A program made the translations under genes and the position numbers. Positions 1 through 44,559 of a stretch of DNA of 58,906 nucleotides are shown here, piece after piece (position 1 is the stretch's first letter; each line of letters begins with the position of its first letter). Source of the DNA: Stramenopiles sp. TOSAG23-6 (lineage: Eukaryota). Location of the stretch: assembly GCA_900128565.1 (NCBI GenBank), contig LT635917.1:1-58906 (forward strand). The letters are read 5' to 3'. Under the pieces are notes generated by a model that was not told the origin of the DNA, searched no databases, and was given only the letters and a program-made list of their open reading frames with translations.

Positions 1-896
1 GGCTCAAAGAAAGGCATTAAAAAAGGCTGCAGATAAAGCAGCAGAGACAGATAATACAGTACGGGAGCTTCGCAAAGACGATACAATGAAACGCCTTACA
101 AAGTTAGTTGGTGGTATCACTGATCCGGAATTTTCTCAAGCATTAGAAGATACACTTTCCACTCTAGGAAAACCTGGAGGTTACAATGGAAATCCAGATG
201 ACGTATTTGGTGGACCAGGAATAGATCCAAGTGTGTCTGAACCTACAGTGGACGCCAATATAGCAAAAACATTACAAATGTTATCTGAAGCTGGTAAATC
301 TGGAATTGATGGAATGGAACCAGCAGCAGCTGAAGCTTTAGGTGAAGACATGATGAAGAATATTATGCAAGATTTTGAACGCATGGGAGAAAAAGAAGAT
401 TTTCAAAATGTTGTAGACGGAATGATGAAACAATTGTTGGCCAAGGAAATTATGTATGAACCAATTAAAGCCATCTGTGAGAAATACCCTGAATGGTTAG
501 CTGAAAATGAACCTTTTCTTGAGCGTGTTGAGTATGAGCGTACGTTTTCATCACGATTTTTTTTTTTCATAGAAAATTTTGTACCTAACAAAAAAATTCA
601 AAAAAAAAATATTTTTTCGCAATACATGGTTTGGACGTCAATATCAATTTATTCAAAGAATTTGCGCTTGTTACGAAACTCAGCCAGATAATTTTGAGCG
701 ACTTATGGAACTAATGCAGGATATGCAGGAATGTGGACAACCCCCGGCAGAAATTGTCAAAGAATTAGCTCCAGGATTACAGTTTGGGTCCGACGGTATG
801 CCAATAATGCCTAATATGGGTCCTGGGATGCCGTCTTTCCCTCCGATGGATATGCCGAATGTCCCTGGTATGAATCCACAGTGTACCATTTGCTAG
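1..896 (+). CDS. PEX19: Peroxin-19 (5'-partial); exons <1-539, 628-896
   Basis: Frame open from base 2. Pex19 C-terminal motifs LLAKEIMYEPIKAICEKYPEWL and LMQDMQECGQPPAEIV, ending in a CaaX box (CTIC). Removing 540-627 joins the two ORFs as YER-FGRQYQ. Confidence 0.92.
540..627 (+). other. Family intron, GT-AT, 88 nt
   Basis: GTACGTTTTC...AATTTTGTACCTAAC...AATATTTTTTCGCAATACAT; restores the PEX19 frame (C|GG = Arg). Confidence 0.88.
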
Positions 897-1183
897 AATA
901 TTTTTTTTTTGCTTAAATAATTTGTTTTTATGATAAATGAAATATATTTTTTGTGTTTATAATAATATATCCACTTTGGTGAAAAAAATTCTGAAATCTA
1001 TAAAAAAAAAAAAAAAAATGTTACAAAAAAAATCACGAAAAACAAATCACAATCGCAATCCAATGACACGTGGCAAAAAAAATAAAAAAGCGCGCGAAAA
1101 ATTTCAAATCAAAAATTCAAATGCATTGTGACATCAAGTTTTCCCCCCTAAAGTAATTTATCTGTAGATAAAATTATTAAATA

Positions 1184-4100
1184 ATGAGTAATAATATTTG
1201 TTTCGCTGCTGCTGCAGAGCGAGGGTATGATGTCAATGAGCTCATTGGCGAAGGAACATTTGCTCAAGTATTCTCTGCGGTACATAAAAAAAGTGGTTCA
1301 AGAGTTGCACTAAAGGTAATGCGTAAGACTGAGCTATCAAGGCGAGGAATGCTACCTCGCGTTCGCGGGGAGATTGAAACGCACGCTTTCTGCTCAAGGC
1401 ACGCAGCTGTAGTAAGAATGTATGATAGTTTTGAAGATTTAAATAGTATTTATATTGTTCTAGAGCTATGTGAAGGAGTATCGGGACCATTAGATTTATA
1501 TGAACTGCTAAAATATAGCCCTAAAAAGTCTCTTGAGGAGAGTCAAGCACGTACCGCCATGGACTCTCTTCTAAGTGCAGTTTTATATTTACACGAGCGT
1601 GGCGTACTACATCGCGATATTAAAGCATCGAACCTTTTACTTTCTTCCCGAAATATAAATAAAAACAATGGGGAAAACAGAAAAGAAATAGGAACAGGCG
1701 CAGCACTTAAACTTGCTGACTTTGGTCTCGCAGTTCGACTTCAGCGTCCAGATGAGCAAAGATTTACAATTTGCGGAACTCCAAATTATTTAGCACCAGA
1801 AGTATTATCTGGTTCAGCACAAGGTACAGCAAGGGATATGTGGTCCGTAGGTTGTGTGTTGTATACGATGCTTATCGGGACGCCTCCCTTTGAAGCACAG
1901 CGACCACAAGAAACCATGGAAAGAATTCGACACATGGACTTCGAACTACCAGGTACCTTATCACTGGAGGCAAGAGATATCCTCGCACGCTTACTTACAC
2001 CTTTTCCAAACAAACGCATCACTGCCAAGGAAGCATTACAACATCCATTTATGAACAAAAACCGCCTTCGAAAACCTCTACAGCAAGAAAAAGTAAAGAT
2101 TTTAGAGAAAAAGCGGGATGTTTGTCCTTCCCGTCAGTTTCCATTGCCCGAAGTTATTGATGTCACAACCTCTCTACTACAGTCTGAAGTTGAAGTAGAA
2201 GCTGAATTAGAATCACTTTTTGGTAGTGATGTATGTGATACATCAAGTCGGAGTATTATGACAATACATTCTACAACTAGTCAAGTGAAAAGAAGTCGAT
2301 ACCCAGGGGACGGTGAAAAGCGCCAGACGACTTCAACAATGTTAAAGGACATTGGAATCGAACCTAATCATATAAATATGGACAATGAAGTGTATTTAAA
2401 GCCTTGTAATACAAAACGAATAAAAGCAGTTTTCAATGCCGAAAGAGTCCTTAGTAAAGATGTAAAAGCAAATCTCGCTGATACAAATAAGAATTCAAAT
2501 ATTCAGACAAAGAGTGTTCATATTTTAAAATCAGGGTGTATTTTATGTGAAATTAATGCAATGAATATGGATAATATATTATGGCTTCAGAGTCCTACAC
2601 GATTAGTACTTCGTATATCTAGAAATGGTCAAATGTGTCATTTAGGGTTGATATACTCCCCGAATTCATTCAAGATCAAAAGAGTAATATCACGTTATTC
2701 TCTTTCTAAACTACCTATCGAATTGTGTGGTATCTATCAATATGCATCAATCATTGTAAAAGCATTGCGCTCGAAAACCTCAAAAGTAGTTTTGTCGTCA
2801 TCTTGTTGGAAAGCTTCTTTAATGGAAAGTAGGGATTTTGTGTTAGCATTTACTCAAGACGAGATGCCGATTACACGTACTGGGCGAAGAATTCAACGGG
2901 TTTTATTAGATGCAAATGGATCAACTGCAACACTGTGGTTCAAAAGTAATGATTCTTGCAACGTGTCACGACATGTCGATAGTATTACACTTTGTCTGAG
3001 TGACACTATCTTTCTGACTGAAGGAAATTCAGACGAAAATGAAGTAATAACTGCTATTTTATTACAAGCTCAACAAATCCAGAAAAAATGTCTTTTGGAA
3101 GAAAGTTTATCCATAAAAAACATGAATTCAAAGTTTCCCATTACAAAAACTGTAAGAGATATCTTTAGTGACGAGCAAATATATTCCCAGAAAACAACAC
3201 AACTGAAACCACCTCTAGTTGTAGGACCATCAATGCGTGATATATCAAATTCGACGCCTTTTTCTTCTATGAGGTCTAACCCAAATAATGATACATCTTT
3301 TTGTACGTATGCTTCACGTGCCAGTTCTGTCTGGACATCCGCGACCAGCTCATGGAATACTTCTGTAACATCAATTATGATGTCTTCAAATGTTGGCGTC
3401 CCAGTCACAAAATACTCAAGAACATCAGATTCCAATGATTCGCCTGGTTGCATTACATCGTCTGCATCTTCGTCAATGTTAACAACTAGTTCTAGTGCGG
3501 TGAGTGGTGGTACATCTATGTTAACGACAAGTTCTAGCGCTGTGAGTGGTGGCAATTTAAGTGTAAATATGAGTAGTGATGCTTCATTTAGCAAATATCT
3601 CATTGCTGGTAATATAGAAAATGATCAGTGGATAGATAATGAAACTTCATGGTTCGTTAGCCCTGAATGTATCGAAGAGTCAGAAGCACAAGTTCAAGAG
3701 ATAAATGAAGATAGAAATGTTCTACAAAACACTTCATCAAGGTCATGTTGTAACATTAAAAAAAACACACAAAACCTAATGGTTTTACAACGTGAAATGA
3801 ATACGCCATGTGTGACTACAGATATGTTATCAGCCGCATCTGATGCATTAGATCTCTTGAAAGTTCCACTTGAAACTTCTATAGAAGAAACAACAAATGA
3901 ACAAACCTGTCAACAAAATTTAAACAATACTCAACCTAATGAAACCGACCTTGAGAACATTTCAGTATGTCAAGCTAATCGATCTTCAGAAGGGGATTTA
4001 CACGTATCGTTCAGCGATGGTGCATCAATAGTTTTAAGCCAAGAGGCAAACTACGTCAGTTACCGTACTTCATTGGAGAAGACTGAAAAAAGTAAAATAT

Positions 4101-4192
4101 TTTATTTAAATGGAATTTCTAGCTCAAATGATCTCCCTAAACATATTCTTGTACGGCTGGCATTGGCCGCTCAAATGGAGAATATTTGGTAA
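1184..4192 (+). CDS. PLK4: Polo-like kinase 4 (SAK-like), single exon
   Basis: Kinase motifs GEGTFA, HRDIK, DFG, TICGTPNYLAPE. Cryptic polo-box-like segment YQYASIIVKALRSKTSKV..KASLME..DF and C-terminal PB3-like VSFSDGASIVL..LPKHILVRL. Confidence 0.85.
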   Translation: MSNNICFAAAAERGYDVNELIGEGTFAQVFSAVHKKSGSRVALKVMRKTELSRRGMLPRVRGEIETHAFCSRHAAVVRMYDSFEDLNSIYIVLELCEGVSGPLDLYELLKYSPKKSLEESQARTAMDSLLSAVLYLHERGVLHRDIKASNLLLSSRNINKNNGENRKEIGTGAALKLADFGLAVRLQRPDEQRFTICGTPNYLAPEVLSGSAQGTARDMWSVGCVLYTMLIGTPPFEAQRPQETMERIRHMDFELPGTLSLEARDILARLLTPFPNKRITAKEALQHPFMNKNRLRKPLQQEKVKILEKKRDVCPSRQFPLPEVIDVTTSLLQSEVEVEAELESLFGSDVCDTSSRSIMTIHSTTSQVKRSRYPGDGEKRQTTSTMLKDIGIEPNHINMDNEVYLKPCNTKRIKAVFNAERVLSKDVKANLADTNKNSNIQTKSVHILKSGCILCEINAMNMDNILWLQSPTRLVLRISRNGQMCHLGLIYSPNSFKIKRVISRYSLSKLPIELCGIYQYASIIVKALRSKTSKVVLSSSCWKASLMESRDFVLAFTQDEMPITRTGRRIQRVLLDANGSTATLWFKSNDSCNVSRHVDSITLCLSDTIFLTEGNSDENEVITAILLQAQQIQKKCLLEESLSIKNMNSKFPITKTVRDIFSDEQIYSQKTTQLKPPLVVGPSMRDISNSTPFSSMRSNPNNDTSFCTYASRASSVWTSATSSWNTSVTSIMMSSNVGVPVTKYSRTSDSNDSPGCITSSASSSMLTTSSSAVSGGTSMLTTSSSAVSGGNLSVNMSSDASFSKYLIAGNIENDQWIDNETSWFVSPECIEESEAQVQEINEDRNVLQNTSSRSCCNIKKNTQNLMVLQREMNTPCVTTDMLSAASDALDLLKVPLETSIEETTNEQTCQQNLNNTQPNETDLENISVCQANRSSEGDLHVSFSDGASIVLSQEANYVSYRTSLEKTEKSKIFYLNGISSSNDLPKHILVRLALAAQMENIW
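3473..3553 (+). repeat. Two-copy in-frame tandem repeat (SMLTTSSSAVSGG) in the PLK4 linker
   Basis: 42-nt period with synonymous differences. Confidence 0.8.
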
Positions 4193-4363
4193 ATTCCAAT
4201 TTCAACTTGTATTTATATTATTAAAAGTTAACCGAAAAAATCGGTTTTGTTCCCCCCCCCAAAATATCAAAATATTTGTGTAGCTAGTTTTTATTACAAA
4301 ATAAAATAAAAAATAAAAAATAGCTTTTTGTATTATTTTTTTTTTATAATGTTTTTATAAATA

Positions 4364-5863
4364 TTAAAAAGTATTTGGAAATATTTCGTCTGAAATCGAG
4401 TCTCCTAATATGGAATCAACTCCTTTCAATTCTTTCCAGCCTCCATACTTTGCTATATAGAGTACTGCAAGTTGATTAGGAAGAGCTCTAAATACAATTG
4501 CAACATCCATTGGTGTAGACTTAAAATCCATATCCATGATTGGCAAATGAAGTATCTGTGTAGTGTCACGGGCTGTGAAGAATATTAAAAAAAAAAAAAT
4601 GTTACATACAAAATTTGGTACAAAAAAAGTTACATTTGAAATGAGTGATGAAAACGTACATTTCCCTGAAGATCAAACGGGGGCGAGGAAGAACCTAAAC
4701 TAGCCCAACTTGTGATAAAGGCACATTTCGTCTTTCCAAAAAACCCAGGGTATTTGGATGTAATTCCAGAGTATGAACCATCTTGCCGAGGAGAAAGCCA
4801 AGAGCGAACGTCTTCTGGTGTTTTGAATCCTCCTTTATCTGCCAAAATCACTCCTTCATAGTTCCCCCCGTATGTTTTGTGAAAAAAATATTTCAAACAT
4901 TTGAAATCGTTAGGTACGAAATTGCGTACGAAAAAAAAATTATAAATTTGAAATGGAAGAGGACAACATACATGTTGCATCTTGCAATTCTTCCCATCTA
5001 CTACGATAATTTATAGTCATCATTGAAATATCAGCATCACACGAATTAAGAAAATGTGATGTAATAATATCATTTGATGAAACATAAGGCACTACATTGT
5101 TCTCAAGAACTCTACTTTTTGCAATGTCAATTTGCTTTTTATCTACATAAAATGCTAGTGGACGCCCCTTTGGCTTACTAAATACACCTTGAACCATAGA
5201 CTTGATAAATGCAAGGCTATTACCATACTTAAAATCGGATTCTCCCATTAACCTTTTTTCCTGCGTTTTCTCATAATCAAATTTACGTTTAGGTATAATT
5301 TTTGGAATTGGAGATAATTCACCAGAGTCGTTAACAATGTCTGCCAATGAGTTCAAGACTTCGTAGTATGTAAAACCGTCAGCAACTACGTGGCTCATTG
5401 AAAAGATCATGGCAAAACTAGTTTCATCTATTGGAGCCAATAAGCATTTAGTGACAGGCGTTTGATGTTGGAGAATAACTTTCCCCTTCCCTACAGCTAA
5501 TTTTCTGCTCAAATCGACGAGACGAGAATATTCCGTTTTCATACTTAGATCTTGTACTGGAGTTTCTTTGATAGTGAGAATTTTCTCAACGTGAAATCGT
5601 TCAATCACAGAAGGATAGACAAGTTGAACACTTTCGCCTTTAAATTTACATAAAGTTCCACAAATCCAAGGATTTTTTTCAGCAACGAGATACAACCGAT
5701 TTTCAATGTGAGTTATGACGTTGTTAATATTTCCTCTAAAAAATGTTATAGTGCAAATTGGTGGATGTTTAAATTGTCCTGTTGCGCCTGAACTAAGTTC
5801 TCTCTTAAATAGCGGCTCTGCACAGTCATAAGGACAATTTTCAATAGAAATACCGTTTCCCAT
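4364..5863 (-). CDS. CoA-dependent (HxxxD) acyltransferase-like protein; exons 5863-4972, 4871-4660, 4567(or 4555)-4364
   Basis: SHVVADG HxxxD motif; three ORF fragments joined in frame by two family introns. Confidence 0.65.
4568..4659 (-). other. Family intron, GT-GT (92 nt) or GT-AG to 4556 (104 nt)
   Basis: GTACGTTTTCATC...AAATTTTGTATGTAAC...AATATTCTTCACAGCCCGT. The first AG is out of frame; both the positional end (4568) and a later AG (4556) are in frame. Confidence 0.7.
4872..4971 (-). other. Family intron, GT-AT, 100 nt
   Basis: GTATGTTGTC...TTTCGTACCTAAC...CACAAAACAT; joins DAT-YGGNYEG in frame. Confidence 0.82.
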
Positions 5864-6125
5864 TTGTTACTATGAAATAGAAATCACGTAGTAGTAGTTA
5901 CCAGTAGTATGTAGCAAATAATGACAACAAAAAATTGTTGCCGTTTGTAAAAAAACGCAAAACAAAACGCCACGTGTTTTTTCTCGATTCAGTTCAAAAG
6001 GAAACACATGAGTCCATAGTACATGGTACAAATAGGTACTGCAGTGGAATACATACTACGAGATTTTGCCTCTAGCTAGGAGCCAGTATTCTCCGTCGTG
6101 AATATTTTAGTTGAATATTTTGACA

Positions 6126-8675
6126 ATGTATAATGTGTCGTTTGCATCCCGAACAGTGATATCTGTTTCAACTCGTCGTTTGACGATGGTTGTGTCTCAG
6201 AACTCGAGACAGGGCGTACATTGCCAAAAGCGAAATTTCAGTATACGAACACCCTTTTCAAAACCAAACCGAAACAACAGAAATAAACGTTTCTTTTCAG
6301 CAGCATCAAATAGTTTAGCATCACAGCGTCATGTAAAGGCGGGTGGAATTATAGATTTGGATACAGACCACGAATTTTGTGATAAAAATGACAGGAAAAC
6401 ATATAATAAAATGGGAGTGTCTTTTCAAAGTAGTAGTGAATCTATTGTTACTCCAGTTGAAGAAGATAGACAAGACGATGAACCGCCCACAGTTCAAATA
6501 GTTACACAAAAGTTAAATCGAGAACAAAGTAATGACCTTCTTCAAGGTGTACTAGATTCGGAAATTATAGGAAATACTGATTGGACCGGTGAGGAGTTAA
6601 TCTCACAACTTTTAGCAGATGTTTTTCAGTTACAGCCCAACGTAAGTGCAGAAGAGTTAGTCTCTATGATCAATGATTTCAATACAAGTAAAGATAGTAG
6701 AAATTACAGAAAAGGTATGGCTGCAAGATTTTCAAGGTTGTTATTTGGGTTTATTAAAAAACAAGCGGAAAAAGCTCCGGCGGACATCAAATCGAGTTTG
6801 ACTTCTCCCCATCCTCCCGAATTTCTGAAAAGTCTGATATCGAAATATATGCTTGGTGAAGGTTGGAATTCTGCATATGCAGAAAGTGAAATTTCTAGAC
6901 CAATCAATGATGCACTTGTGTATTTACGATCTCATTGGGCTGTAGAACTTCAAGCTCTACATAGTACCGCTTTAGCTTGGTCAGATGAGTTTGATAATTC
7001 TCTATATTTACACCGCGAATTTGGTACGAGAGCTTTACGATTACATCGTATATTACGTGCAACATTGTCAAAAGAGAAATATATTTCACTTTTTCAACTT
7101 TTAGGCGCTTTTAATGATCAAAAAGGAATTCATTCAAAACGTGAAAAAGAACAATTATTTCTTGACATGGAGTCTCTAATAACAACTGACGAAAATTGGT
7201 GTCCACGTGACATGTCGCCTGAAGCTTATGATCCTTCATATGCCAAAAACTCAGAAAAGAAGATTAAATTGACGTTTGGTGTATCTCCTGGTGTTCCGGT
7301 TGGTGGGAAGGTTAATGTTGTTATGCCTGATGGACAAGTGAAGGAGGTGACACGTGGCATGCAGAATGAGTATGATTTAAATGCTCAAGTTACGCGTGGT
7401 ATGCAATATGAATATGATTTAAAGAAAAATACAGCAGAAGCAGTTCCTGCAGAAACAACATCTGTAAACTTTGATATGAAAGAAGTTGAGAAGGCGCCGA
7501 AAGTTGTTGAATCGCCAGAACATAGACATTTGGTAGAAATGTTGAAGTGGTTGATTCAGGGAAAACCTGCCACTGAACGCCCTTCAGATTTAAGTGTTCC
7601 TCCAAGTAATATTGCGGCTGCTATTTTACATGCTCGATATAGATTTAGACGAGGTGTTCGACGTGTTCAAGTGAGAGAGCACAAGAAGCAAAAGCGTCAA
7701 GGACAACGTGAAAACGAAAAGCGAAACGAACCGTTCGAATCTGGTAAAATTGTTGATCGTGCTAGCCATGAAGATTCTGATATAAATGAGGCGAATCAAT
7801 CAAATGATTCACTTGATCCATTAGATGCTGATAAATCTATGAATTATATTGATGTTACTCCGAAAAAGAAAAAATTCGACAAAAGTATTCCTCCATTTGT
7901 TTTACAAGCAGGATTAAACCCTGCTCCTTTTGTTTCAGCCAATGTGTTGAGAGAGAACAAAATACCTAATGACGATTTAGTTGTACTTGTTGAATCTGTT
8001 CCAGCATTTGTAAGTGAAAACGATTTGCGTAAGGCTTTTTCACGATGTGGTGAAATTGAGAATGTATCGATTATTGGGAGAGAAAAAAATGAAGCCAAAA
8101 TAGTTTCTGAAGACAATGTGAAGATAGAAAATAAAGTAGAAAATAAAAGTAAAAAAAGTAAAAAGGGTAGAAAGGGTAAAAAGAAAGGTGACGCTCGAGC
8201 AGATGGAGAGAGAGGTAAACAAGAACTTTCATTAAGAAGTAGAAATGCCCGTAGACTAGCCATGAAAGACTGCTGGCGTAGTTTCGGAGTAATAGAATTC
8301 AAGAACAAATCTGGTCGAGATGTTGCTTTGTCATCCTCATTGAGATGTATTGGAATGTTCATTAGAGGTGAAGCACTACGCACAGTTTGTCCAAAGTTAA
8401 GGTCAACTTTGTATGTTAATAATTTAGATTTTAATCTTACAACTCATGAAGTGGCACATATGATGACTGATATGCATAGTTATGGTGATGTTCCAGGTAT
8501 TGAAATTAAAGCCAACCCTAAAGGTGAAAATGGTTCAATTTCTGGTACTAATTCTGGGCATTGTTTAATTGAATATCCAAATTATGCTGTCGCAATTTCT
8601 GCCTTAGCAAATGTCACTGGTCAACATGTTGATGGAAAGCGGCTCAAAGTAAGATGGCCAAAAAGTAAGTATTAA
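6126..8675 (+). CDS. RRM-domain protein, probably organelle-targeted
   Basis: Two C-terminal RRM-like segments (LVESVPAFVSENDLRKAFSRCGEI..FGVIEF; LYVNNL..GHCLIEY). Arg/Ser-rich N-terminus resembles a mitochondrial presequence. First ATG at 6126. Confidence 0.7.
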   Translation: MYNVSFASRTVISVSTRRLTMVVSQNSRQGVHCQKRNFSIRTPFSKPNRNNRNKRFFSAASNSLASQRHVKAGGIIDLDTDHEFCDKNDRKTYNKMGVSFQSSSESIVTPVEEDRQDDEPPTVQIVTQKLNREQSNDLLQGVLDSEIIGNTDWTGEELISQLLADVFQLQPNVSAEELVSMINDFNTSKDSRNYRKGMAARFSRLLFGFIKKQAEKAPADIKSSLTSPHPPEFLKSLISKYMLGEGWNSAYAESEISRPINDALVYLRSHWAVELQALHSTALAWSDEFDNSLYLHREFGTRALRLHRILRATLSKEKYISLFQLLGAFNDQKGIHSKREKEQLFLDMESLITTDENWCPRDMSPEAYDPSYAKNSEKKIKLTFGVSPGVPVGGKVNVVMPDGQVKEVTRGMQNEYDLNAQVTRGMQYEYDLKKNTAEAVPAETTSVNFDMKEVEKAPKVVESPEHRHLVEMLKWLIQGKPATERPSDLSVPPSNIAAAILHARYRFRRGVRRVQVREHKKQKRQGQRENEKRNEPFESGKIVDRASHEDSDINEANQSNDSLDPLDADKSMNYIDVTPKKKKFDKSIPPFVLQAGLNPAPFVSANVLRENKIPNDDLVVLVESVPAFVSENDLRKAFSRCGEIENVSIIGREKNEAKIVSEDNVKIENKVENKSKKSKKGRKGKKKGDARADGERGKQELSLRSRNARRLAMKDCWRSFGVIEFKNKSGRDVALSSSLRCIGMFIRGEALRTVCPKLRSTLYVNNLDFNLTTHEVAHMMTDMHSYGDVPGIEIKANPKGENGSISGTNSGHCLIEYPNYAVAISALANVTGQHVDGKRLKVRWPKSKY
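7348..7420 (+). repeat. Two-copy in-frame repeat VTRGMQ(N/Y)EYDL
   Basis: 42-nt period duplicate inside the CDS. Confidence 0.7.
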
Positions 8676-8717: not shown

Positions 8718-8820
8718 GTATGTTTTTTTTTCCAATTTTTGTCTAATTTTTTTTTTCATACGAAATTTCGTACCTAACAAAAACATTTAGAAAATTCAAT
8801 TTTTTTTTTTTGAAAAACAA
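8718..8820 (+). repeat. Non-coding copy of the intron family (probable 3'UTR intron; 3' end uncertain)
   Basis: GTATGTTTTT at 8718 and CATACGAAATTTCGTACCTAAC at about 8757-8778, starting 43 nt after the stop codon. Confidence 0.7.
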
Positions 8821-8896: not shown

Positions 8897-10526
8897 TTAT
8901 AGTGTTTGCTTCTCGGAATGTTGTTTCTGTTGCTCTTGAATTATCTTTTGTTGTTGTTGTTGTCTAATCATCAAATACTGTGAAAAAGTATGTCAAATTT
9001 GTTAGGTGTTAAGTACAGAATTTGATACAAAAAACATTTTTAAAAAAATTAATGATGAAAATGTACATGTTTCTCATCCGATACTTCAAAACGTTTTCAA
9101 ACAGTACAATTGATTTATGAAGTCTATCGCGCGAAATTTGATCTAAATTAGGAATATTTAGTTTTTTTATTAAATCTTGACGCAACATCTCGAGTTTCTC
9201 ATTACTCATATTAGCAGTGGCATTTAAAGTAGCTTGAGACAAATGTTTAGGATTACTGATTCGAGGATCGGGAAGTCTTTTACTTGCCATCTTCATTTGT
9301 TCTTTTTGATACTCTAAATGTCGCACAATATTCTGTGCATTCTGCAAGCGAGCTTCAGCAGCACGCACAGCAGAATTACACATTGCCATGTGTGCTTGAA
9401 GTTCTTGCTGGCGTTTCTTCCTGTGTAAATATGTATTGTGAAAAAAAATATTTTTAGAATGTTTTTTATTTTTTTTGTTAGGTACGAAATTAGGTACGAA
9501 ATTTTCATCGTAAAAAAAATACATTTGAAATGAATGATAAAAACGTACATACCACAGGGTCAAAGCAATTCTCTAAATTTGCTTTTCTATTATATAGCTG
9601 TTTCTGAACACGAGAAATTCGTTTAGTTTTCTTATTCACATCGTTGCTCTTCGGAATCACATTTTCTTGATTACTCAATCCCGTAGGATTGACACTGCTA
9701 TTATCTCTATGTAAGAATAATCGTAGACTTTCTCTATATTGAATTTTACTTGGAGCTGTAAGTGCAGGTATTTTGGAAAATATTTCAAAAAAAAATTGTT
9801 AGGTACAAATTTTCGTACGAAAAAAAATGGAATTTGAAAAAAACTAAAACATACAGTAAACTCCGAAGCTCCGCGAGAAAATCGGATAAGATTTCGATCC
9901 CGTTCTAAAAGACATGTCAAACGTTTTGCAGGGGGTATGTCAGTATCAGGAACTGTTCCATTGACTTTATCCCATGATCTAGAGAATCTAAACGCTTCGT
10001 CAGTATATCCAATTTCCCTAGGTCGTTTTTCTAATCGTCTACTTCCAGATGCACCTGCCTTTTTACCATCAACTTCAGTGGATTTACCCTTACTCTTACC
10101 GCGACTTTTACCTTTACTTTTGGTCTGGCGCTTTGTCTTTCCTCCTGTTTTTAATCCAGCTCCACCCTGCACACTTCCCCCTCTATCAAGTGATTGACTC
10201 ACTTGAGCTAATTGCTGCGCGCGAGCTAAAGCAGCTTTATCTAATTGTTCTCTTGCCCATTGCATTAATCTAGCCCCATATTCATACATTGTCCTTAACA
10301 TCGGATTAGTTCCATGTAAGCACGCTGCGTTGAAATCATTGTGAAAATCGTTCAACGTTCTGTATCCGCCGTGCTGATTAAGTCTCTGTCTCATTGTGGT
10401 GAGATTCGGGGCTCTTGAGCGTGTCTGTTGATGGACCCCCTTAATATGAAGATCCCACCGACTAAGACGATCAAGACATAGTTTTAATACAATATGAAGA
10501 GTACTGTAGTCGCTTTCAGTTGACAT
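8897..10526 (-). CDS. Uncharacterised protein with a degenerate bromodomain-like N-terminus; exons 10526-9855, 9765-9549, 9430-9067, 8972-8897
   Basis: PNLTTMRQRLNQHGGYRTLNDFHNDF resembles the bromodomain PMDL..I..Y....F..D segment. Continuous frame after removing three family introns; the last exon is less certain. Confidence 0.6.
8973..9066 (-). other. Family intron, GT-TT (94 nt) or GT-AG to 8978
   Basis: GTACATTTTCATC...CTGTACTTAACACCTAAC...TTTTTCACAGTATTT. The positional end gives a Gln-rich 25-codon tail; the AG gives an almost immediate stop. Confidence 0.65.
9431..9548 (-). other. Family intron, GT-AT, 118 nt, with duplicated branch motif
   Basis: GTACGTTTTT...AATTTCGTACCTAATTTCGTACCTAAC...CACAATACAT. 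The downstream CAG would create TGA. Confidence 0.82.
9766..9854 (-). other. Family intron, GT-CT, 89 nt
   Basis: GTATGTTTTA...AATTTGTACCTAAC...AATATTTTCCAAAATACCT. This end opens a 217-nt exon in phase with the next intron; the downstream CAG leads to a stop at 9675. Confidence 0.8.
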
Positions 10527-10786: not shown

Positions 10787-12675
10787 ATGTATATACCCAA
10801 AGTAGCAAATATTAAAAAGCTTGTTGAAAACCCAGCATGTGTAGTCCAAGATATGATTGACGGATTAATTGAACTCAACCCCAATACCCGCCGTTTAGAT
10901 GGTTTCCCTGAAATCAAAGTTGTTGTTCGTGCTGACTGGTGTATTAAAAACAACAAAGTTGCAATAATATCAGGTGGTGGTAGTGGACATGAACCCGCGC
11001 ACATTGGCTTTGTTGGTCAAGGAATGTTAACTGCTGCTGTAGCTGGTGAAATATTCGCAAGTCCCTCAGCGGATGCAGTATTGGCTGCTATTCGTGCTGT
11101 CACTGGCAAGGCTGGAGTTTTACTCATTGTGAAAAACTACACCGGGGACCGCTTAAACTTTGGTCTTGCGGCTGAAATGGCAAAGGCAGAAGGATACAAT
11201 GTTGATATAGTGGTGGTACGTGACGATGCAGCGCTAGAAGGAGATAAACAACGGGGTATTGCAGGGACAGTATTAGTTCATAAAATTGCTGGGGCTTGTG
11301 CTGAAGAAGGCAAATCACTCGCAAGAGTGCGCGAAGTAGCCGCAGAAGCTGCATCACGGGTATATTCAATGGGCGTTGCTCTCAGCACATGCACGAAACC
11401 GGGACAAAATATAAAAACACAGGAGGATAGATTAGCGAATGGAGAGATGGAGCTTGGTATGGGTATGTATGTTTTATTATTTTCAATTTCGATTTTTTTT
11501 CGTACGAAATTTTGTACCTAACAAAAATATTGAATGTAAAATATTTTTCAAAATACATACACGGAGAGCGAGGACGAGGTCGTTCGAATATGCTCCCAGT
11601 GAGTCGTATTTGTACAGTTCTATTAGATACAATATTAGAAAAAATGGAAAACACGACATTTGGGTCAGTTGTTTTAATAAATAATCTAGGAGGTGCAACC
11701 GCGATGGAAATTGCAGTTGTTGCTAAATTTCTTATGGCAGATTTACGAAGCAGAGAATTTCGAGTTTCTCATTTAATTTCTGGTCGATTGATGTCTGCAC
11801 TTGACATGCAAGGTGTTTCTGTCAGTATTCTTCCTCTATCTCGTGAAACTGCGTCATTCATTGAAAGTTACACAGATGCTCCTGGTTGGCCACGAGTTGC
11901 TAAGTTAGCGTCTTCACAGCGTTGTCCTCAAGAAAATTCAATTTCAATTCCAGAGTTCACTACTACAGAAAATATGTATGAAATCCAAAATATGGAAACT
12001 ATAGCACCTCATATTGAATTATTACAAAAAACAATTCGTGCTGTCGCTGAGTCTGTTATATCAAAAGAAGCTATGTTGACACATTGGGATGGTATTGTAG
12101 GCGATGGTGACTGTGGTACTACTTTAAAATTTGGATTTGAATCAGTACTCAATGATTTACCTAGCTATCCTTTGTTATATCCTAAAGGTGCATCTTTAGT
12201 TATGAGAGCTCTTAGTAGATCTCTTAGAGGTATGGGTGGCTCTTCCGGGGCTCTATATGCTATTGGTCTCTCTGCTGCAGAACGTTCGATGTCAAGTGAC
12301 GAAAATCTAGACGAAACAAATATGCAAATGCAAAACTTTTGCTACTGGGTCAGAGCACTTCGCTCAGCGATTCATGCTATAATGTCTCATGGTGGAGCTA
12401 AACTCGGTGATCGCACAATGTTGGATGCTTTATTGCCAGCCATAGATGTTTTGGAGTTGGCAATTGAAAGCAATAATACTTCAGACTGGAAGAAAGCTGT
12501 TAGTGCTTCGGCATCTGCGGCTGAAATTGGAGCGCATTCCACCAAATCAATTCATATTGCTGGTGCTGGAAGGTCCGCATACATTGAACAATCTCATTTA
12601 GGAGGAATTCCTGATCCTGGTGCTATGGCTATTTCCTACATAATGAAAGCAATATCAGACTCTCTTATTTTATAG
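10787..12675 (+). CDS. DAK1: Dihydroxyacetone kinase / triokinase (DAK1+DAK2 domains); exons 10787-11466, 11559-12675
   Basis: SGGGSGHEPAH, VKNYTGDRLNF, ELGMGIHGE (across the junction), GDGDCG, GDRTMLDAL, GRSAY, PDPGA. Confidence 0.95.
11467..11558 (+). other. Family intron, GT-AT, 92 nt
   Basis: GGT AT|GTATGTTTT...TTTTGTACCTAAC...AAAATACAT|A CAC GGA GAG restores GIHGE. Confidence 0.93.
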
Positions 12676-15900: not shown

Positions 15901-17565
15901 GGCTTAGTGCAGCGAATGAGAGAATGCTAAGAAAACGCGTTGCCAAACGTTGGAAAAATCAACATATGACGAAAATGAGGGAAATGTGGAAATCTAATAC
16001 AGAAAGCATTAAAAAAAAACAGTTGGAAGACGCTCGAAAACGCAAAGAAGCTGAACGACAAAGACGTATTGAAGTAGCAAATCGTGAGCACAATGAATGT
16101 TTACAAATGAGAATAGAAGAACATGCACAGTGTAATTGTGGTGATTTGTTCTGGGGCATCGAATTACTAAAGGAAATGATTAGAGATGAATTTGCTGCAG
16201 CACAATCTCATAGAAATAGAATTAATCAAAGAGTCAAAGAAAAACAACACGTTAAATGGCATCACGAATTGCGTCGCAGAAAGAAAGACAAGGCAGAGAA
16301 ATTGGCTGCTGTGTACGCATCGCGACATCGTAATTATATGAATAGATTCTGGAAATCTAAGAACTCGGCGGATATCATTGCTCATAATTGGACTCGCCAA
16401 AAATCAGATGAGAAGATAATAAAAAAACTAGTTTCTGGACCAGTAGGTTTCATTATTCCCATAGATGAACCTTCCCCATTAGATGCGATTCTACCTGATC
16501 TTAAAGGTCGCCCAATGACTGTAATTCCACAACGTGCACGTCGATTACAATCAGTTCACAATGAAAATGTTGATGTCTACTTACCCCCCTTACTTGCAAT
16601 TACACGTTCTTCTCCTAACCCGGCGGACCTGCCTCCAGACACGGTTAGAAGTATCGAAAAAGATGTGTATAGCCCTAGAGTGCGGAGTAGACGAGGTTAT
16701 ACCACGTACAGTAGAAACCCTAAATGGAGGGACGGATTTCGAAGCAGAGCTGAAACATCACGAAAGTCCAAAGATGTTAAGAGTAGGATGTTACACAAGA
16801 GAGCAGCAACATCACGTGCTAAACTCAACACAACCGCGACATTAAAGTCTCCACCGGCATCGCCCACAGCAATACCACAAAATATAGATCTTTCCGTAGA
16901 CATTCCAAAAGAGCTTAAAGCTTTTGTTGAACAAGTAAATATAGTTGTCAATGAAAAAGGAACTCTTTTTGCTGCGGAGATGAATTCTTTACGCCATGCA
17001 TTATCAGATGCTGATGAAGATCAAACACAAACTACAACAGAAGCACAAATTATTAATCAATTGCGAAAGCAAGGATTAGGTATACCACGTAAGTTTGTCA
17101 CTGCAATGTTTGTATCATTAGCAAAGCTAACACATAAAAGTTCAGTAGAAGAAACGCGCATTCAGTATAATAGCCTAATAGACTGTATGAGTAAATTTGT
17201 GGTGCCGATTTCACCAAAACAAAAGAGAAACCTATTTTTGAAAGGTTTCTCAAAAATGCAGTTCGCAGTTAAAAAGGGAGTACATGTACATTTTCAAAAT
17301 TGAATTTCGAATTTCTTTTTTTGTACCAAATTTTGTACCTAACAAAAAACAATTGAAATATGTTTTGACAATACATGTCCCACCAAATGATAAATTGAAT
17401 AAACGTATTTTCAAAATGAAGTATGCGCTTGCAATCAAAGCAGGTATGAAAATAGATCATTCTGATAGCGCTAGTGGTGATGGGGTAAGTAGTATAGAAT
17501 CTGATAGTGGATCATTTTTTAATACAGTGGATGACTTACAAGCTAAAAAAAATAAAATTAAATAA
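12972..17565 (+). CDS. Large WW / IQ / coiled-coil / two cNMP-binding-domain protein; exons 12972-17285, 17377-17565
   Basis: WW-like GWTE..YYIH..T and GWIQ..YFIH..SWDRP; IQ-like IQCMFRMH and CQARFRG; cNMP-like FFFIMKGEG..GNYFGE and FYIIESG..SQFFGQRA. Confidence 0.75.
17286..17376 (+). other. Family intron, GT-AT, 91 nt
   Basis: CAT|GTACATTTTC...TTTTGTACCTAAC...GACAATACAT|GTC; no AG near the 3' end; joins two ORFs in frame. Confidence 0.8.
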
Positions 17566-17779: not shown

Positions 17780-19852
17780 ATGAGTGCTAACACTAATACC
17801 GCGTCGGCTGAAGCAAAATGTATTTCTTTGCCATGTTGGCCTCTCGGTGTACCACATGTTGAGAGCAGAAAGCAGCAGCCGACTCGTATAGACTTGCCTG
17901 ACACACGTAATAAAAATATACGAGCTTCTTCTTTAGATATACAGCACGATATTCCAAGACTACCTAATGCAGAGGAAGAATTTCTCCTTGAACAGGGCAT
18001 CTCACTCCCCGAAGTTGATGAAATAAGCTCTGATGTAGACAATCAAACCTGTTCATGTTGGCCACCTGGTCAACGAGTTGAATCACAAGCTGTTTCTCCA
18101 AATCCAGCGAATATTCATCAAACAAAAGACGTTGTATATAAAGGCATTCCATTGAAAGAGAAAGAATCTTACACAGATTCAGATGGTGTCGCGAAAGTTC
18201 AAGAAGAATTGTGGTTAATATTTACTTTTTATGCTATCCATGGGAAACCGCAAAAGCCCCATATGATGACAGAAAATGAATGGATTCGATTTCTTGTTGA
18301 CTGTTGGTTACTTCCCATAAGTTCGGTGAATAAAAAGTCGCTGCGTAAACGACGCTCTGTAAAATCTCAAAACTTAATGAAGGGAAAAGGATATCCCAAA
18401 TTATTGAGTCCACAGGTGGCTTGTTTATTGTATAAACGTGCTGTAAATTATCGATCCGACGGTATGTACGTTTTCATCATGAATTTTAATTTTATTTTTT
18501 TCGTACGAAATTTTGTACCTAACGATTTTTTATTTTATTTTTTTTCACAATACATGTATTTTCAAAACTTTTTGAATGCTTTGATATTCATTGGTTCGAA
18601 ACTTTATAGTAAAGAATCCAGTGACAATGGTCTTGGAAAATTAACTGCAAATGGTGCATTTTCATTAATCCTCCAGCGGCATGTTTTACCGAAATGCCTC
18701 GCACGGCGTAGAATTATTCCAGTCGTTCATGTACATTTTAATTTTAATTTCGAATTTATTTTTTTTTTCGTACCCAAATTTGTACCTAACAAAACATTTG
18801 CATATAAAATATTTTTCACAATACATCATATTCTTGCATCACACGATGTGACACAACTTTATCGATACTACAAAAATCCCCTCCTAGAAATATTTAATTT
18901 GTATACAGTGGATAAGGGAGAGTTTTTTTCTCGTATTGATGAGAGATACAAAGAAAAAAGTACAAAAAATGGTATAAAATTTAAATTGGGTGTCGGCGTG
19001 AGGACTATGGGTAACGAGAAATGGTGGAAATTTTGTAATGACTTTGGCTTATCTAAATTACTATCCCACTGTAAACTGAATGAGATTTATCTTAATGTGG
19101 GCTCCATTGTTCAAGTAAAAGACAAAATTGTACAGGAAATGTTTTTTGAAGGATTTTGGGAAGCTTTCATTAGAATATCTCAGTTGGTATATGATGACCC
19201 ATCTGCTTCATTTGGTGTTTCTTTTATACGCCAAATTCGTGCAGTATTTCTCATGATGTGGAGATCTATTGAAGAAGGTGCAAGAAATACCAGGAGAGAG
19301 TATAATTCTATACGTTGTGGAAGAAATTGTTCGGACGAAGTGAAACCTTTAGCTGCTAAAATATTTGGAGATGCATTCTTGAATGATTGGCGATCAACTA
19401 ATTTTCATGATTATGGCGAATACAAACGCCTTGGAGTTTACTCTTCGGATTGTGTTCTTTCAAGAATGACTGAAGATAATGCTCGTGTATCACTCAATAC
19501 TTCTAATATGATAAAAGAACAATTACTAATTTCTGGGCGAAATAAAACAAAGCAGATCATCGAAGACACAAAGTTTCAAAATGATTTACAAATAGGATCA
19601 GACGTTGAGCTAGCACGTTTTGTAGAGGATAGAAAAAATAGTGTTTCCGAAATAGCCAACTTTTCAAAAATAATCCCGAATGATAAATTATCGAATCACA
19701 ATGTAGATAAAAGAGGTAGAACAAAACTTGTAAATCATTCATCAAAGCAGCGACAGCTTGAATCTGTACGACTTGTAGGTAGATTACCCGGTAGAAATTT
19801 TACACCTCTAACTGAAACGGATAAAAAGGGACGATGGTCTATTTTGACATAA
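17780..19852 (+). CDS. Uncharacterised protein with degenerate EF-hand-like helices; exons 17780-18465, 18556-18730, 18827-19852
   Basis: Long ORF with repeated L..IF..Y / M...EW..F..D segments; two stop-free family introns inside. First ATG at 17780. Confidence 0.6.
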   Translation: MSANTNTASAEAKCISLPCWPLGVPHVESRKQQPTRIDLPDTRNKNIRASSLDIQHDIPRLPNAEEEFLLEQGISLPEVDEISSDVDNQTCSCWPPGQRVESQAVSPNPANIHQTKDVVYKGIPLKEKESYTDSDGVAKVQEELWLIFTFYAIHGKPQKPHMMTENEWIRFLVDCWLLPISSVNKKSLRKRRSVKSQNLMKGKGYPKLLSPQVACLLYKRAVNYRSDGMYVFIMNFNFIFFVRNFVPNDFLFYFFSQYMYFQNFLNALIFIGSKLYSKESSDNGLGKLTANGAFSLILQRHVLPKCLARRRIIPVVHVHFNFNFEFIFFFVPKFVPNKTFAYKIFFTIHHILASHDVTQLYRYYKNPLLEIFNLYTVDKGEFFSRIDERYKEKSTKNGIKFKLGVGVRTMGNEKWWKFCNDFGLSKLLSHCKLNEIYLNVGSIVQVKDKIVQEMFFEGFWEAFIRISQLVYDDPSASFGVSFIRQIRAVFLMMWRSIEEGARNTRREYNSIRCGRNCSDEVKPLAAKIFGDAFLNDWRSTNFHDYGEYKRLGVYSSDCVLSRMTEDNARVSLNTSNMIKEQLLISGRNKTKQIIEDTKFQNDLQIGSDVELARFVEDRKNSVSEIANFSKIIPNDKLSNHNVDKRGRTKLVNHSSKQRQLESVRLVGRLPGRNFTPLTETDKKGRWSILT
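18466..18555 (+). other. Family intron, GT-AT, 90 nt, in-frame and stop-free
   Basis: AT|GTACGTTTTCATC...TTCGTACGAAATTTTGTACCTAAC...CACAATACAT|G. Confidence 0.8.
18731..18826 (+). other. Family intron, GT-AT, 96 nt, in-frame and stop-free
   Basis: CAT|GTACATTTTA...AAATTTGTACCTAAC...AATATTTTTCACAATACAT|CAT. Confidence 0.8.
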
Positions 19853-26516: not shown

Positions 26517-26626
26517 GTATATTTTTCGTTAATTTAATAAAAAGACATCTTGTTTCTTTTGTTTTTTTTTGGTACGAAATTTTGTACCTAACAAAAACTT
26601 TTACAACATATTTTCTTACTATACGT
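26517..26626 (+). repeat. Non-coding copy of the intron family
   Basis: GTATATTTTT...GGTACGAAATTTTGTACCTAAC...CATATTTTCTTACTATACGT between RPLP1 and YIP1. Confidence 0.65.
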
Positions 26627-34255: not shown

Positions 34256-34417
34256 TGTTTCAATTGAAGCATTTCATTTTTGGTATTTGAAAGATTTAGT
34301 GATAAAGTTACACACGATAATCAAATGTCATCCATACACAATCTTTGGTACCACAAAGTGTCGTGCTATATATTGATACGGAATATTAATAATTATGTCT
34401 TGGCTTCTAAATCTTCG

Positions 34418-34447
34418 TTTTTTTCATAGATAATTTCGTACCTAACA
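34418..34447 (+). repeat. Degenerate non-coding core of the intron family
   Basis: TTTTTTTCATAGATAATTTCGTACCTAAC between convergent genes; no clear donor or acceptor. Confidence 0.5.
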
Positions 34448-34464
34448 TCTACGAAGTGTAATAC

Positions 34465-43340: not shown

Positions 43341-44559
43341 ATGAATAACTCTTTTCATGAGAAACCCTCTCTGTATACTGTAGCAACACATTCTGTGGAA
43401 AGTTTAGAAAATTTTTGTAGTACTTGGGATAGCTCTAGTGATTGCTTTCCTGATAAGCTTCTAGCTCCACTTCCTTTGACAACTCCAAATCCAACCAAAA
43501 TCCAAAAAAGAAAACAACACGATGACACATCTTCGTACACTTTTGAAGGGGAAAACATATTGAAGACGAAAAATGTATCACGTCGTCTAGAAAAATGTGC
43601 TTCAAAACTTAAAATACCTATAAAATTTTTNTCTCCGGCCGCTTGGCGTGGTGTTATGCGGAATGTACCAGCCTCGTACCGTGATGAATCACGTAAAGCT
43701 TTGGCAAAACAAACTTTTATGAACACAATTGTTGCGAAAGCATCTAGTAAGGAGCATGTTATTTTAATTTCCAGAAATAAGCCTCGAATGGTAGGTACTG
43801 GTCGCATTCTTGTCCTTGTTGGGCTAAAATACCGAGGAAACGTTGGAAGTATTGTCCGGTCTGCCGTGCAAGCAAACGCATTTGATGAAATATATTATGT
43901 GGAAAATAGATCGTCAGATGAGGAGTATCTCAATTTGACAACTCTTGTGAAGCGAAAAGATGGTAAAACTGGAGAGGATGAATCTGAACATGGTATTCCT
44001 GGTTATGAACTCAAAACAAAAAAACGAATGCGGGTGACTGATAAAGAAGTGGACTACTTTTCTATTTTTAATGCTCCACTGATTCCGTTTCGAAGATTTA
44101 AATCCGTGGGTGATTTTATGAGTGTTGCCTCTAATGAATTAGTGACGGTAAACAGTTCTTGTAATTCTGGTGTTTCTAATATTCCGAATGAAAACTTAGT
44201 TACAATGAAAACTACAAACGGGCGGGTAATGGTTGCATTAGAATGCTGTGACTCTGCTTTCGACATGTATGTTTTCAACGTTCAAAATTTCAAAAGCAAA
44301 TTGTACCAAATTTTGTACCTAATTTTTTTTTTCTTTAAATATTTTCTCAAAATACATTTACAGTGAAGATGCTAAGAATATTTTAGCCAAGGAAGATTTG
44401 TATCTTGTCATGGGTGCTGAAGATATCGGTGTGCCCATGGAAATAATGAATTCTTGTAGTGCTTTAGTAAAAATACCAGCATTGTCCGCTTCAGTCAATG
44501 TTTCGTGTGCTTTTAGTGCAGTACTGACTATTCTTAAAGACTTAGATTACAATAAATAA
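43341..44559 (+). CDS. SpoU/TrmH-family (SPOUT) RNA 2'-O-methyltransferase; exons 43341-44266, 44358-44559
   Basis: GNVGSIVRSA; second exon LVMGAEDIGV and VKIPALSASVNVSCA. Confidence 0.85.
44267..44357 (+). other. Family intron, GT-AT, 91 nt (in-frame CAG at 44363 also possible)
   Basis: CAT|GTATGTTTTC...TTTTGTACCTAAT...AATATTTTCTCAAAATACAT|T. Confidence 0.78.

Follow-up and report, generated by a model that had tools for sequence, protein, structure and literature searches.

Introduction

The closest described systems to the introns reported here are introners. In Micromonas pusilla, Aureococcus anophagefferens and the genomes described in a survey (PMC9860276), they occur as many near-identical short introns per genome; they are non-autonomous, carry inverted repeats at their ends, and draw one splice site from the element and the other from the flank, with mRNA length unaltered. 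In Amoebophrya, the published account of non-canonical introners (PMC7789003) describes non-GT-AG introns with direct repeats of 3–5 nt over the exon/intron borders and inverted repeats of 8–20 nt that link both intron ends; these introns fall into many families, have no common terminal dinucleotides and lack an internal transposase.

We analysed a 58,906-nt stretch of DNA (the window) from a stramenopile whose gene models bear a MAST-3-type label. All introns seen in the window fall into one family. This family shares the introner traits listed above, but its acceptor is AT (13 of 19 introns) or CT (1) and not AG, its putative duplication is 2 bp compared to the 3–9 bp given in the survey text, and a single family makes up all introns seen in the window (compare PMC9860276). 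With the Amoebophrya introners, as that account presents them, it has in common non-GT-AG introns, direct repeats over the borders, inverted repeats linking the ends and the absence of an internal transposase; it differs in its invariant donor of the form GTAYGT, its yeast-like branch site, its single family, its 2-nt repeat, and a terminal repeat of 6 nt with T and A runs after it (PMC7789003). Our literature search found no introner report on a heterotrophic MAST-3-type stramenopile; survey tables (PMC9860276, PMC12130899) may include such genomes. Introners themselves are already known, and the novelty here lies in the non-AG 3′ ends.

Two other systems share some of these features. Stowaway-type MITEs of Tc1/mariner are likewise about 100 nt, AT-rich and palindromic, and their target duplication is a 2-bp palindrome, but the Tc1/mariner duplication is TA whereas the dinucleotide here is AT, and no transposase was found in the window. 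Euglenid non-conventional introns also have non-GT-AG ends and complementary intron ends, which are thought to draw the exons together; unlike them, the introns described here have a canonical-looking donor and branch site, and covariation for RNA pairing was not found.

Results

One intron family across the window

A profile search of the 58.9-kb window gave 24 family matches, comprising 19 complete coding introns, one copy truncated at the window edge and four decayed non-coding copies (Table 1). All 24 are oriented in the sense of the gene that contains or immediately precedes them. The family design, about 90 nt long, reads GTAYGTTTT .. CGTACGAAATTTYGTACCTAAC .. AAAATAC, followed by two nucleotides. 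Median pairwise identity of the copies is 0.69, compared to 0.57 for shuffled copies, and shared alignment blocks run their full length. The best-conserved blocks are the donor (GTA[TC][GA]T in all 19 introns), the branch site (motif TACCTAAC, 24–49 nt and at the median 36 nt from the intron 3′ end) and the 3′ end; the spacer blocks TTTCAATTTCGA, TTTTTTTCGTACGAAATTT and TTGAAATATTTT are also alike among copies. The standard genetic code yields long open frames in the window, and those inspected held no reading-frame break requiring another intron type. At the copy whose first G is A (29839–29929), ORFs of 853 and 667 aa would be fused in frame if the cuts fell where they usually do in the family.

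A 20-mer pattern scan found one true additional copy, AT/AT, on metagenome contig L036. In viral contigs a 16-mer pattern matched 35 loci, none with family context, and the single match among prokaryote genome contigs, in a Bacteroidales MAG, covered the core block without the ends and was taken as chance. Rfam gave no match on the window.

Table 1. Members of the intron family in the window. Paired dinucleotides give the last two bases of the upstream exon and of the intron, in that order.
Positions	Strand	Feature	Evidence
540–627	+	Intron, 88 nt, Pex19-like gene; GC/AT, flanking repeat absent	RNA contig (X8 record 18) on window from 628 onward
4573–4659	-	Intron, 87 nt; AT/AG
4872–4971	-	Intron, 100 nt; AT/AT
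8718–8795	+	Decayed non-coding copy, 43 nt past RRM gene stop; 3′ part not alignable	E = 4.4e-9
8978–9066	-	Intron; exon end AT; candidate 3′ ends AG (stop two codons on) or TT at usual family position
9431–9548	-	Intron, 118 nt; AT/AT; branch-site block duplicated
9766–9854	-	Intron, 89 nt; CT/CT, sole locus-specific match; AG 10 nt beyond is out of frame
11465–11466	+	Final two exon bases, AT, ahead of the kinase intron; same as its final two bases
11467–11558	+	Intron, 92 nt, GT..AT, phase 2, dihydroxyacetone kinase gene	Family profile E = 2.5e-14
17286–17376	+	Intron, 91 nt; AT/AT; second GTACAT 6 nt upstream	RNA contig pieces end 17280, start 17372
18466–18555	+	Intron, 90 nt; AT/AT
18731–18826	+	Intron, 96 nt; AT/AT
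26560–26624	+	Decayed partial copy downstream of ribosomal P-protein gene	E = 1.2e-9
29839–29929	-	Copy with first G to A, 3′ end ATATAA; upstream ORF stops within	E = 3.4e-7
34415–34466	+	Partial copy, branch-site block alone, between convergent genes	E = 2.5e-5
34704–34797	-	Intron, 94 nt, topoisomerase II tail; AT/AT
35078–35172	-	Intron, 95 nt, topoisomerase II; AT/AT (3′ end ATTCAT)
35273–35377	-	Diverged intron, topoisomerase II; exon end AT; in-frame AACAG taken as AG 3′ end
37435–37536	-	Intron, 102 nt, topoisomerase II; AT/AT; RKxW motif kept by AT acceptor
38085–38175	-	Intron, 91 nt, topoisomerase II; AG/AG
38277–38373	-	Intron, 97 nt, topoisomerase II; CA/AT	CTLILTEGDSA regained on splicing
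44267–44357	+	Intron, 91 nt; AT/AT; alternative candidate acceptor, an in-frame AG, 6 nt downstream
55041–55128	+	Intron, 88 nt; TC/AG
55269–55360	+	Intron, 92 nt; AT/AT; top match to family profile	E = 2.5e-16
58844–58906	-	3′ portion of intron (end ACAT), truncated by window end

Homology and RNA contigs support splicing at AT

The stretch in the dihydroxyacetone kinase (sugar-kinase) gene that a preliminary description had flagged as an intron ending in AT is confirmed as a real intron. Its junction context is ...GGT ATG GGT AT/GTATGTTTTATT...TTCAAAATACAT/A CAC GGA GAG (slashes mark the cuts), and its branch-like TACCTAAC lies at 11515–11522. The cut can slide over the AT repeat (AT..AC, TG..CA or GT..AT), and all three positions give one identical mRNA. 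The GIHGE motif of the kinase, present as G[ILMV]HGE in 50 of 52 homologues, is regained solely by the GT..AT cut or its equivalents shifted inside the AT repeat, and this mRNA has the best score against the 52 homologues (71.0, compared to 47.7 for the GT..AG cut). The latter cut belongs to the existing gene model, where a forced GT-AG boundary loses the motif.

In the topoisomerase II gene, the spacing FSK-x5-RK-x-W is preserved by the AT acceptor alone (111.3 vs 102.9), and the motif regained at the intron with donor 38373 is found in 111 of 119 homologues. By homology, then, conserved motifs are regained at three family-intron junctions; in the unconserved topoisomerase tail, homology gave no fixed junctions at 35377, 35172 and 34797. 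In the two existing gene models that we compared, catalytic or conserved motifs are lost and false introns are placed in real exons. The relatives of this topoisomerase II among viral contigs reach just 35–41%, so we did not take the protein-atlas matches to giant-virus clusters as kin of this genome.

Two family-intron junctions agree with the RNA contig pieces. One piece begins exactly at 628, the first base past the ACAT of the intron whose upstream exon ends in GC, and the pieces flanking the intron at 17286 skip 91 nt, which is the intron length, offset by a shared TACAT. Of the 149 joints, the 15 listed included none of intron size. Homology and RNA support the reading of the family as genuine introns whose 3′ end is not AG.

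Exon ends, intron ends and a putative duplication

For the 19 complete coding introns, with those at donors 9066 and 35377 (minus strand) entered as ending in AG, the upstream exon ends in AT in 14, far above the 0.095 at which this dinucleotide occurs in the background (binomial p = 3e-11). Intron ends are AT in 13, CT in one and AG in five. Exon and intron ends are identical in 13 introns (11 AT/AT; one CT/CT, donor 9854, minus strand; one AG/AG, donor 38175, minus strand). The preliminary description had given the same 14 and 13, with the same breakdown, out of 20 introns; the numerators hold and the denominator becomes 19, the twentieth being probably the edge-cut copy or the decayed copy at 29929. 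It had also set the identity of the ends against what independent AT preferences would give. When intron ends were shuffled among introns, 13 matches were observed and 9.9 expected (p = 0.019), a small excess; for the 14 non-AG introns it was 12 compared to 10.3 (p = 0.072) and rests on the one CT/CT case.

Two introns end in AT despite a non-AT exon end, at donor 540 (GC/AT) and at minus-strand donor 38373 (CA/AT), and they contradict simple duplication because GC and CA would be predicted there. The 11 AT/AT introns say little about duplication because AT, a dinucleotide identical to its reverse complement, stands at nearly all sites; they are compatible with duplication, with site preference, or with the two bases being part of the inverted repeat. 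The survey text makes a similar point, namely that a match common to all introns cannot split duplication from site preference (PMC9860276). Overall, it is plausible that the two flanking bases represent a 2-bp target-site duplication. The further proposal of the preliminary description, that a MITE with an AT-preferring 2-bp duplication supplied donor and branch while the duplicate became the acceptor whatever its sequence, fares unevenly: the non-autonomous palindromic family with its own donor and branch is supported, while the duplicate as acceptor is a candidate reading, favoured by the one CT/CT intron and contradicted by the GC/AT and CA/AT introns.

We rejected two other framings by reasoning, as either would change mRNA length: one has a TA duplication in a mariner-like frame, the other makes the exon AT part of the element. 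We know of no DNA transposon superfamily with a 2-bp AT duplication. A post hoc reading of the decayed 8718 copy, TT/GTATG...CAAAATC+TT, would give a possible second locus-specific match; it was left uncounted, the copy's 3′ end not being alignable.

Palindromic build

Family copies bear a terminal inverted repeat and palindromic symmetry along their whole length. Across 15 copies, 81.8% of cells pair between the terminal repeat (AT)GTAYGTTTT / AAAATAC(AT) and within the central hairpin, compared to 22–49% when the pairing partners are slid by 1–3 columns, which bears out the imperfect inverted repeat GTAT(G)TTTT...AAAATAC noted earlier; its perfect part is short (ATGTAT/ATACAT). When each copy was aligned to its own reverse complement, 10 of 19 did better than 97% or more of their 200 dinucleotide shuffles (p <= 0.03); z averages 1.74 over the copies.

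Pairing of the intron ends as RNA (AUGUA/UACAU), which had also been suggested, is possible and gained no support here: none of 15 pairs was altered on both sides in the 15 copies, and the fold energies of six copies were ordinary (z from -1.47 to +0.70). The copies are less independent of each other than column shuffles predict (p = 0.004). A general test for 5′-3′ linkage among them gave no signal (Mantel r = 0.02, p = 0.37), and an apparent association of donor position 4 (C/T) with the 3′ CAAT/AAAT variant (Fisher p = 0.04) concerned sites chosen post hoc.

Depth at copies indicates very high repetition

In an independent seawater DNA run, depth was about 7–8 in single-copy bins and 1,200–7,200 in bins holding copies, supporting very high repetition of the family. 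Depth at copies is thus 150–950 times the single-copy depth, a figure that sums every matching contig, other organisms' among them, and is not a copy number; crude arithmetic gives 1,100–6,900 copy-equivalents, again with other organisms' contigs included. DNA contigs break off at copies (4911, 8767, 9854, 11495, 17312 and 17329). The ratio of depth at a copy to that at the neighbouring exon was inconsistent across bins: at 11467 it was 875 in DNA vs 17 and 0.3 in two polyA runs, and at 18466 it was 95 in DNA vs 101 and 3.6.

No transposase domain was found in the long ORFs of the window, and neither an autonomous partner, as the preliminary description had envisaged, nor an empty site nor an antisense copy was seen. 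A precise-deletion joint was absent among the listed DNA joints. All four non-coding copies share the orientation of the gene just upstream of them (two-sided p = 0.125), as would also be expected under RNA-mediated spread.

Discussion

Real introns of one family, with palindromic symmetry, high repetition and decayed non-coding copies, fit a non-autonomous introner-type element, and this introner reading of the family is well supported. Our preferred account of its origin, which we consider evenly poised between right and wrong, is that a short non-autonomous palindromic DNA element of the introner type, inserting mostly at AT with a 2-bp duplication, made these spliceosomal-type introns as it multiplied across the genes of a MAST-3-type stramenopile. 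The element would bring the donor (GTAYGT, then TTTT), the branch site (TACCTAAC) and the 3′ terminus ATAC. Insertion would occur mainly at AT, with both target bases duplicated, and splicing would take out the element together with the downstream duplicate. Because the duplicate would be removed along with the element, the acceptor would be the duplicated dinucleotide two bases past ATAC, usually AT and not AG, and picked by position, not sequence. Later, some copies may have switched to a nearby AG, and non-coding copies may have decayed. We would extend this account only tentatively, and think it somewhat unlikely, to the claim that one 2-bp-duplicating miniature transposon supplied the lineage's whole intron set, with copies numbering roughly in the thousands and a 3′ cut set by position two bases past ATAC, such that any duplicated target (AT, CT, perhaps AA or TT) could serve as acceptor.

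A serious contender, though one we would not expect to prove right, is that the same introner-like family arose without target-site duplication. The element would then run from GTAYGT to ACAT and carry its own AT acceptor, the exon AT would reflect an insertion-site or splicing preference (a local version of the (C)AG/GT exon end), and spread would be by reverse splicing of RNA or by another DNA route. In its favour are introns 540 and 38373, which end in AT after exons that do not, and the sense orientation of 24 of 24 copies, the four non-coding ones included. The exon-end pattern of C (6), A (15) and T (15) among 19 is the usual CAG with the last base alone altered, and the matches among non-AG introns do not significantly exceed independent preferences. 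The CT/CT intron, however, must then be chance, and the terminal inverted repeat and palindromic symmetry are expected of cut-and-paste elements; both are missing in fungal introners that the survey text treats as thought to be RNA-mobile (PMC9860276). We also infer that G would have to become T twice over, in the exon-end preference and separately in the acceptor, changes that duplication would yield together.

It is improbable that these are immobile old introns kept alike by a demanding spliceosome or by gene conversion. The functional signals (donor, branch site and 3′ end) are indeed the most conserved blocks, no transposase was found in the window and no polymorphism was observed, but the likeness continues through the spacers, decayed copies lie outside coding sequence, and the palindromic symmetry has no known splicing role. 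Phases are also even (6/7/6), without a phase-0 excess, and the spread is uneven: long genes of 2874, 1099, 1007 and 1003 aa hold no family introns, whereas the 5.3-kb topoisomerase gene holds six.

Far less credible is a shift of the boundaries by two bases, which would make these minor-spliceosome (U12-type) or AT-AC introns. The 11 AT/AT introns can be read as ATGTA...ATAC, and the strongly conserved branch motif TACCTAAC is loosely like the U12 branch consensus. The U12-type 5′ consensus is [AG]TATCCTT, with the branch site near the 3′ end; this start is present in none of 19 introns, and the branch motif lies beyond the U12-type distance. The reading also breaks at 540, 38373 and 9854, where introns would start with GC, CA and CT, and the RNA contig at 628 stops short of the preceding AT. 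Finally, although short elements with a 2-nt direct repeat and terminal inverted repeats recall the eliminated sequences of ciliates, it is scarcely conceivable that the copies are cut from DNA or are assembly artefacts, given that the independent seawater DNA run holds copies in place, with contigs entering those at 4659, 4971, 11467 and 17286, that the elements bear a donor and branch site, and that the frames are long under the standard code.

Few signals in eukaryotic genes are as constant as the AG at intron 3′ ends. A lineage whose introns mostly end in AT, with an ordinary donor and branch, is a natural system for studying site choice in the second splicing step. MAST-3-type hosts are heterotrophic marine stramenopiles, from a group both abundant and mostly uncultured. 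Gene finders that assume GT-AG mis-build such genes, and tallies of genes, domains and pseudogenes in assemblies of this type need redoing with the right splice rule. If our preferred account of a duplicating DNA element is true, this family would be a clear case of an entire intron set replaced by one mobile element.

Non-AG introns in the kinase and topoisomerase II genes

The window is gene-dense eukaryotic DNA (~36% G+C) in which the standard code leaves long frames open; among the genes are a kinase, myosin, topoisomerase II, CLU-domain protein, Pex19 and dihydroxyacetone kinase. At 11465–11558 it reads GGT ATG GGT AT, then GTATGTTTT...CAAAATACAT, then A CAC GGA GAG, and excising 11467–11558 (92 nt) from the dihydroxyacetone kinase gene gives ELGMGIHGERG. 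We scored all cuts up to 14 nt away from each nominal end against 52 homologues, of which 50 carry G[ILMV]HGE. The top score, 71.0, belongs to the GT..AT cut and to the AT..AC and TG..CA cuts, which yield an identical mRNA. The GT..AG cut of the existing kinase model loses IHGE and its product scores 47.7, so the flagged stretch is a real intron with a non-AG end.

Two topoisomerase II introns, named here by donor position, behave similarly. At 37536 (−), splicing to the AT acceptor yields FSKDNADARKDW, spaced like the homologues' FSKKRVEDRKDW, and scores 111.3 versus 102.9 for an AG acceptor 9 nt downstream. At 38373 (−) splicing restores CTLILTEGDSA, a motif found in 111/119 homologues; protein homology allows GT..AT or cuts shifted by 1–2 nt, and we chose GT because the donor is invariant across the family. 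Sliding to AT..AC is impossible at 38373 and 540 because their exons end in CA and GC. At these three junctions, which homology fixes, the 3′ end is truly non-AG.

The RNA evidence consists of contigs alone. One from a polyA library fits the window starting at 628, immediately after the ACAT of intron 540, while its 20 preceding letters do not fit. Two others (two samples, one study) end at 17280 and begin at 17372; the 91-nt skip equals the length of intron 17286, and the offset of 5 nt corresponds to the TACAT common to exon end and intron end. These joints are absent among the 15 of 149 joints listed, and the contigs therefore support the proposed cuts, short of proof.

The best database matches for the two genes, GSMAST32.ASY1.ANO1.1916.1 (kinase, P0121) and GSMAST32.ASY1.ANO1.1919.1 (topoisomerase II, P0001), are identical to the window over all aligned parts and are therefore models of the same genome. 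We take the GSMAST32 label to denote a MAST-3 marine stramenopile. Runner-up topoisomerase matches reach 44–55% identity, named stramenopile and green-algal proteins among them. In the topoisomerase model, one intron is partly read as coding sequence, CTLILTE and RK are missing, and pieces of real exons are cut out. Coding sequence skipped by the models includes 33 residues in kinase exon 1 and several 7–37-residue blocks in topoisomerase II, and the models also terminate within a family intron. Unusual introns are not mentioned in the portion of the MAST-3 single-cell genome paper's main text consulted (PMC5778133).

Existing gene models and non-coding or variant family copies in the window
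Feature	Position	Strand	Remark
Kinase model P0121	10787–12672	+	forces GT-AG
Topoisomerase II model P0001	34700–39788	−	forces GT-AG
Decayed or partial family copies	8718, 26560, 29929, 34415		non-coding
Family copy	29839–29929	−	the 29929 copy listed above; A for first G; 3′ end ATATAA

A single intron family

Motif scans, alignment and a profile search found 24 family copies in the window: 19 complete coding introns, one cut by the window end and four decayed or partial. Their common design is GTAYGTTTT(CATCA) .. TTTCAATTTCGA .. T-run .. CGTACGAAATTTYGTACCTAAC .. TTGAAATATTTTYC(A/C)AAATAC plus two bases, with lengths of 87–118 nt (median 92), phase counts of 6, 7 and 6, and a TACCTAAC block 24–49 nt (median 36) from the 3′ end. 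Pairwise identity has a median of 0.69, versus 0.57 in shuffled copies. Topoisomerase II holds six copies and several long genes none; among the window's long frames, inspected short of full gene models, we saw no interruption requiring an intron of another kind. One intronless frame at 45227–53848 (−) encodes 2874 aa of unusual architecture (CLU, laminin-G-like domain, leucine-rich repeats).

Unspliced, an 853-aa ORF stops inside the variant copy that begins with A; cuts placed where the family normally has them would fuse it in frame with a 667-aa glycosyltransferase-61 ORF. Spliced that way, the copy would be an AT..AA intron, although one such join in three would be in frame by chance alone.

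Some copies show further peculiarities. The donor is tandemly duplicated at 17280–17291 (+), GTACATGTACAT, with the frame kept by either; position 17280 is also where a piece of one RNA contig stops. Two branch-site blocks (TACCTAA.. repeated, 12–31 nt apart) at 9474–9497 (−), 35120–35156 (−) and 55065–55103 (+) suggest internal duplications inside the element. Introns often lie in neighbouring pairs ~200–375 nt apart (9431–9854, 34704–35377, 38085–38373, 18466–18826, 55041–55360), which could be due to local hopping or chromatin preference, with too few cases to tell. A Bacteroidales MAG contig carries, at 6147–6231 (L037), a perfect 20-mer match to the family core and a few flanking bases but lacks the element ends, probably a chance sequence match. 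A single N stands at window position 43631.

Signs of a mobile element

Self-symmetry was scored by aligning every copy with its reverse complement, against a background of 200 dinucleotide shuffles. The mean z is 1.74, p ≤ 0.03 holds for 10/19 copies, and symmetry is weakest in the AG-ended ones. Pairing occurs in 81.8% of cells of the proposed terminal helix and central hairpin GTACGAAATTTYGTAC versus 22–49% for slid partners, which bears out the imperfect terminal inverted repeat of the preliminary description. Its further suggestion that the RNA ends could pair gained no support: because no pair changed on both sides and fold energies are ordinary, the repeats look inherited rather than maintained for RNA pairing.

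A seawater DNA run, probably from another sample than the source, shows a depth of 7–8 in single-copy bins versus 1,200–7,200 in copy bins, with contigs stopping at copies; crude arithmetic gives 1,100–6,900 copy-equivalents, from a depth that sums all organisms of the sample. Copies are less mutually independent than column shuffles predict (p = 0.004), with no overall linkage between 5′ and 3′ variants. A transposase was sought in the window and none found. An introner origin of these introns is well supported.

The closest systems are algal introners, in which the duplication provides one of the splice sites (PMC9860276, in part); the non-canonical introners of Amoebophrya, with direct repeats of 3–5 nt and inverted repeats of 8–20 nt (PMC7789003, in part), are also close. 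Unlike both, the window family combines a non-AG acceptor with an invariant donor and branch site of yeast type, has a 2-nt repeat and is apparently the sole occupant of its intron set. Searches of the literature on MAST-3, Incisomonas and stramenopile introns gave no description of it, the species lists of introner surveys lying outside that scope. The observation at 11465–11558, a non-AG intron with matching AT ends, is confirmed.

Possible target-site duplication and mechanism

Exons end in AT in 14/19 cases against a background AT frequency of 0.095 (p = 3e-11), and introns in AT (13), CT (1) or AG (5). The two ends match in 13/19: 11 AT/AT, one CT/CT (9854) and one AG/AG (38175). This recount replaces earlier figures of 14/20 and 13/20, and metagenome contig L036 adds one AT/AT copy. 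Shuffled pairings predict 9.9 matches (p = 0.019), so the excess over independent preferences is real but small; the 14 non-AG introns alone give 12 versus 10.3 (p = 0.072). The duplication proposed earlier gains from this excess, which includes 9854, where the CT end is in frame and an AG 10 nt downstream is not, but AT retained at the intron ends of 540 (GC/AT) and 38373 (CA/AT) counts against it. A flank common to all introns cannot alone separate duplication from site preference (PMC9860276, in part). Both a 2-bp duplication and the use of any dinucleotide as acceptor are candidate readings.

The most likely reading, to which we give an even chance, is a miniature cut-and-paste element with GTAYG..ATAC ends, inserting at AT with duplication. 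Somewhat doubtful, though a serious contender, is that the same family carries AT as part of both element and splicing signal, possibly spreading via RNA; sense orientation in 24/24 copies (4/4 non-coding, not significant) is expected from RNA-mediated spread too. Old homogenised introns, U12-type boundaries, and DNA elimination or artefact fit poorly. Under cut-and-paste insertion, the element would duplicate its AT target and supply donor and branch site, and the downstream copy of the duplication would end the intron, so that mRNA length would be unchanged.
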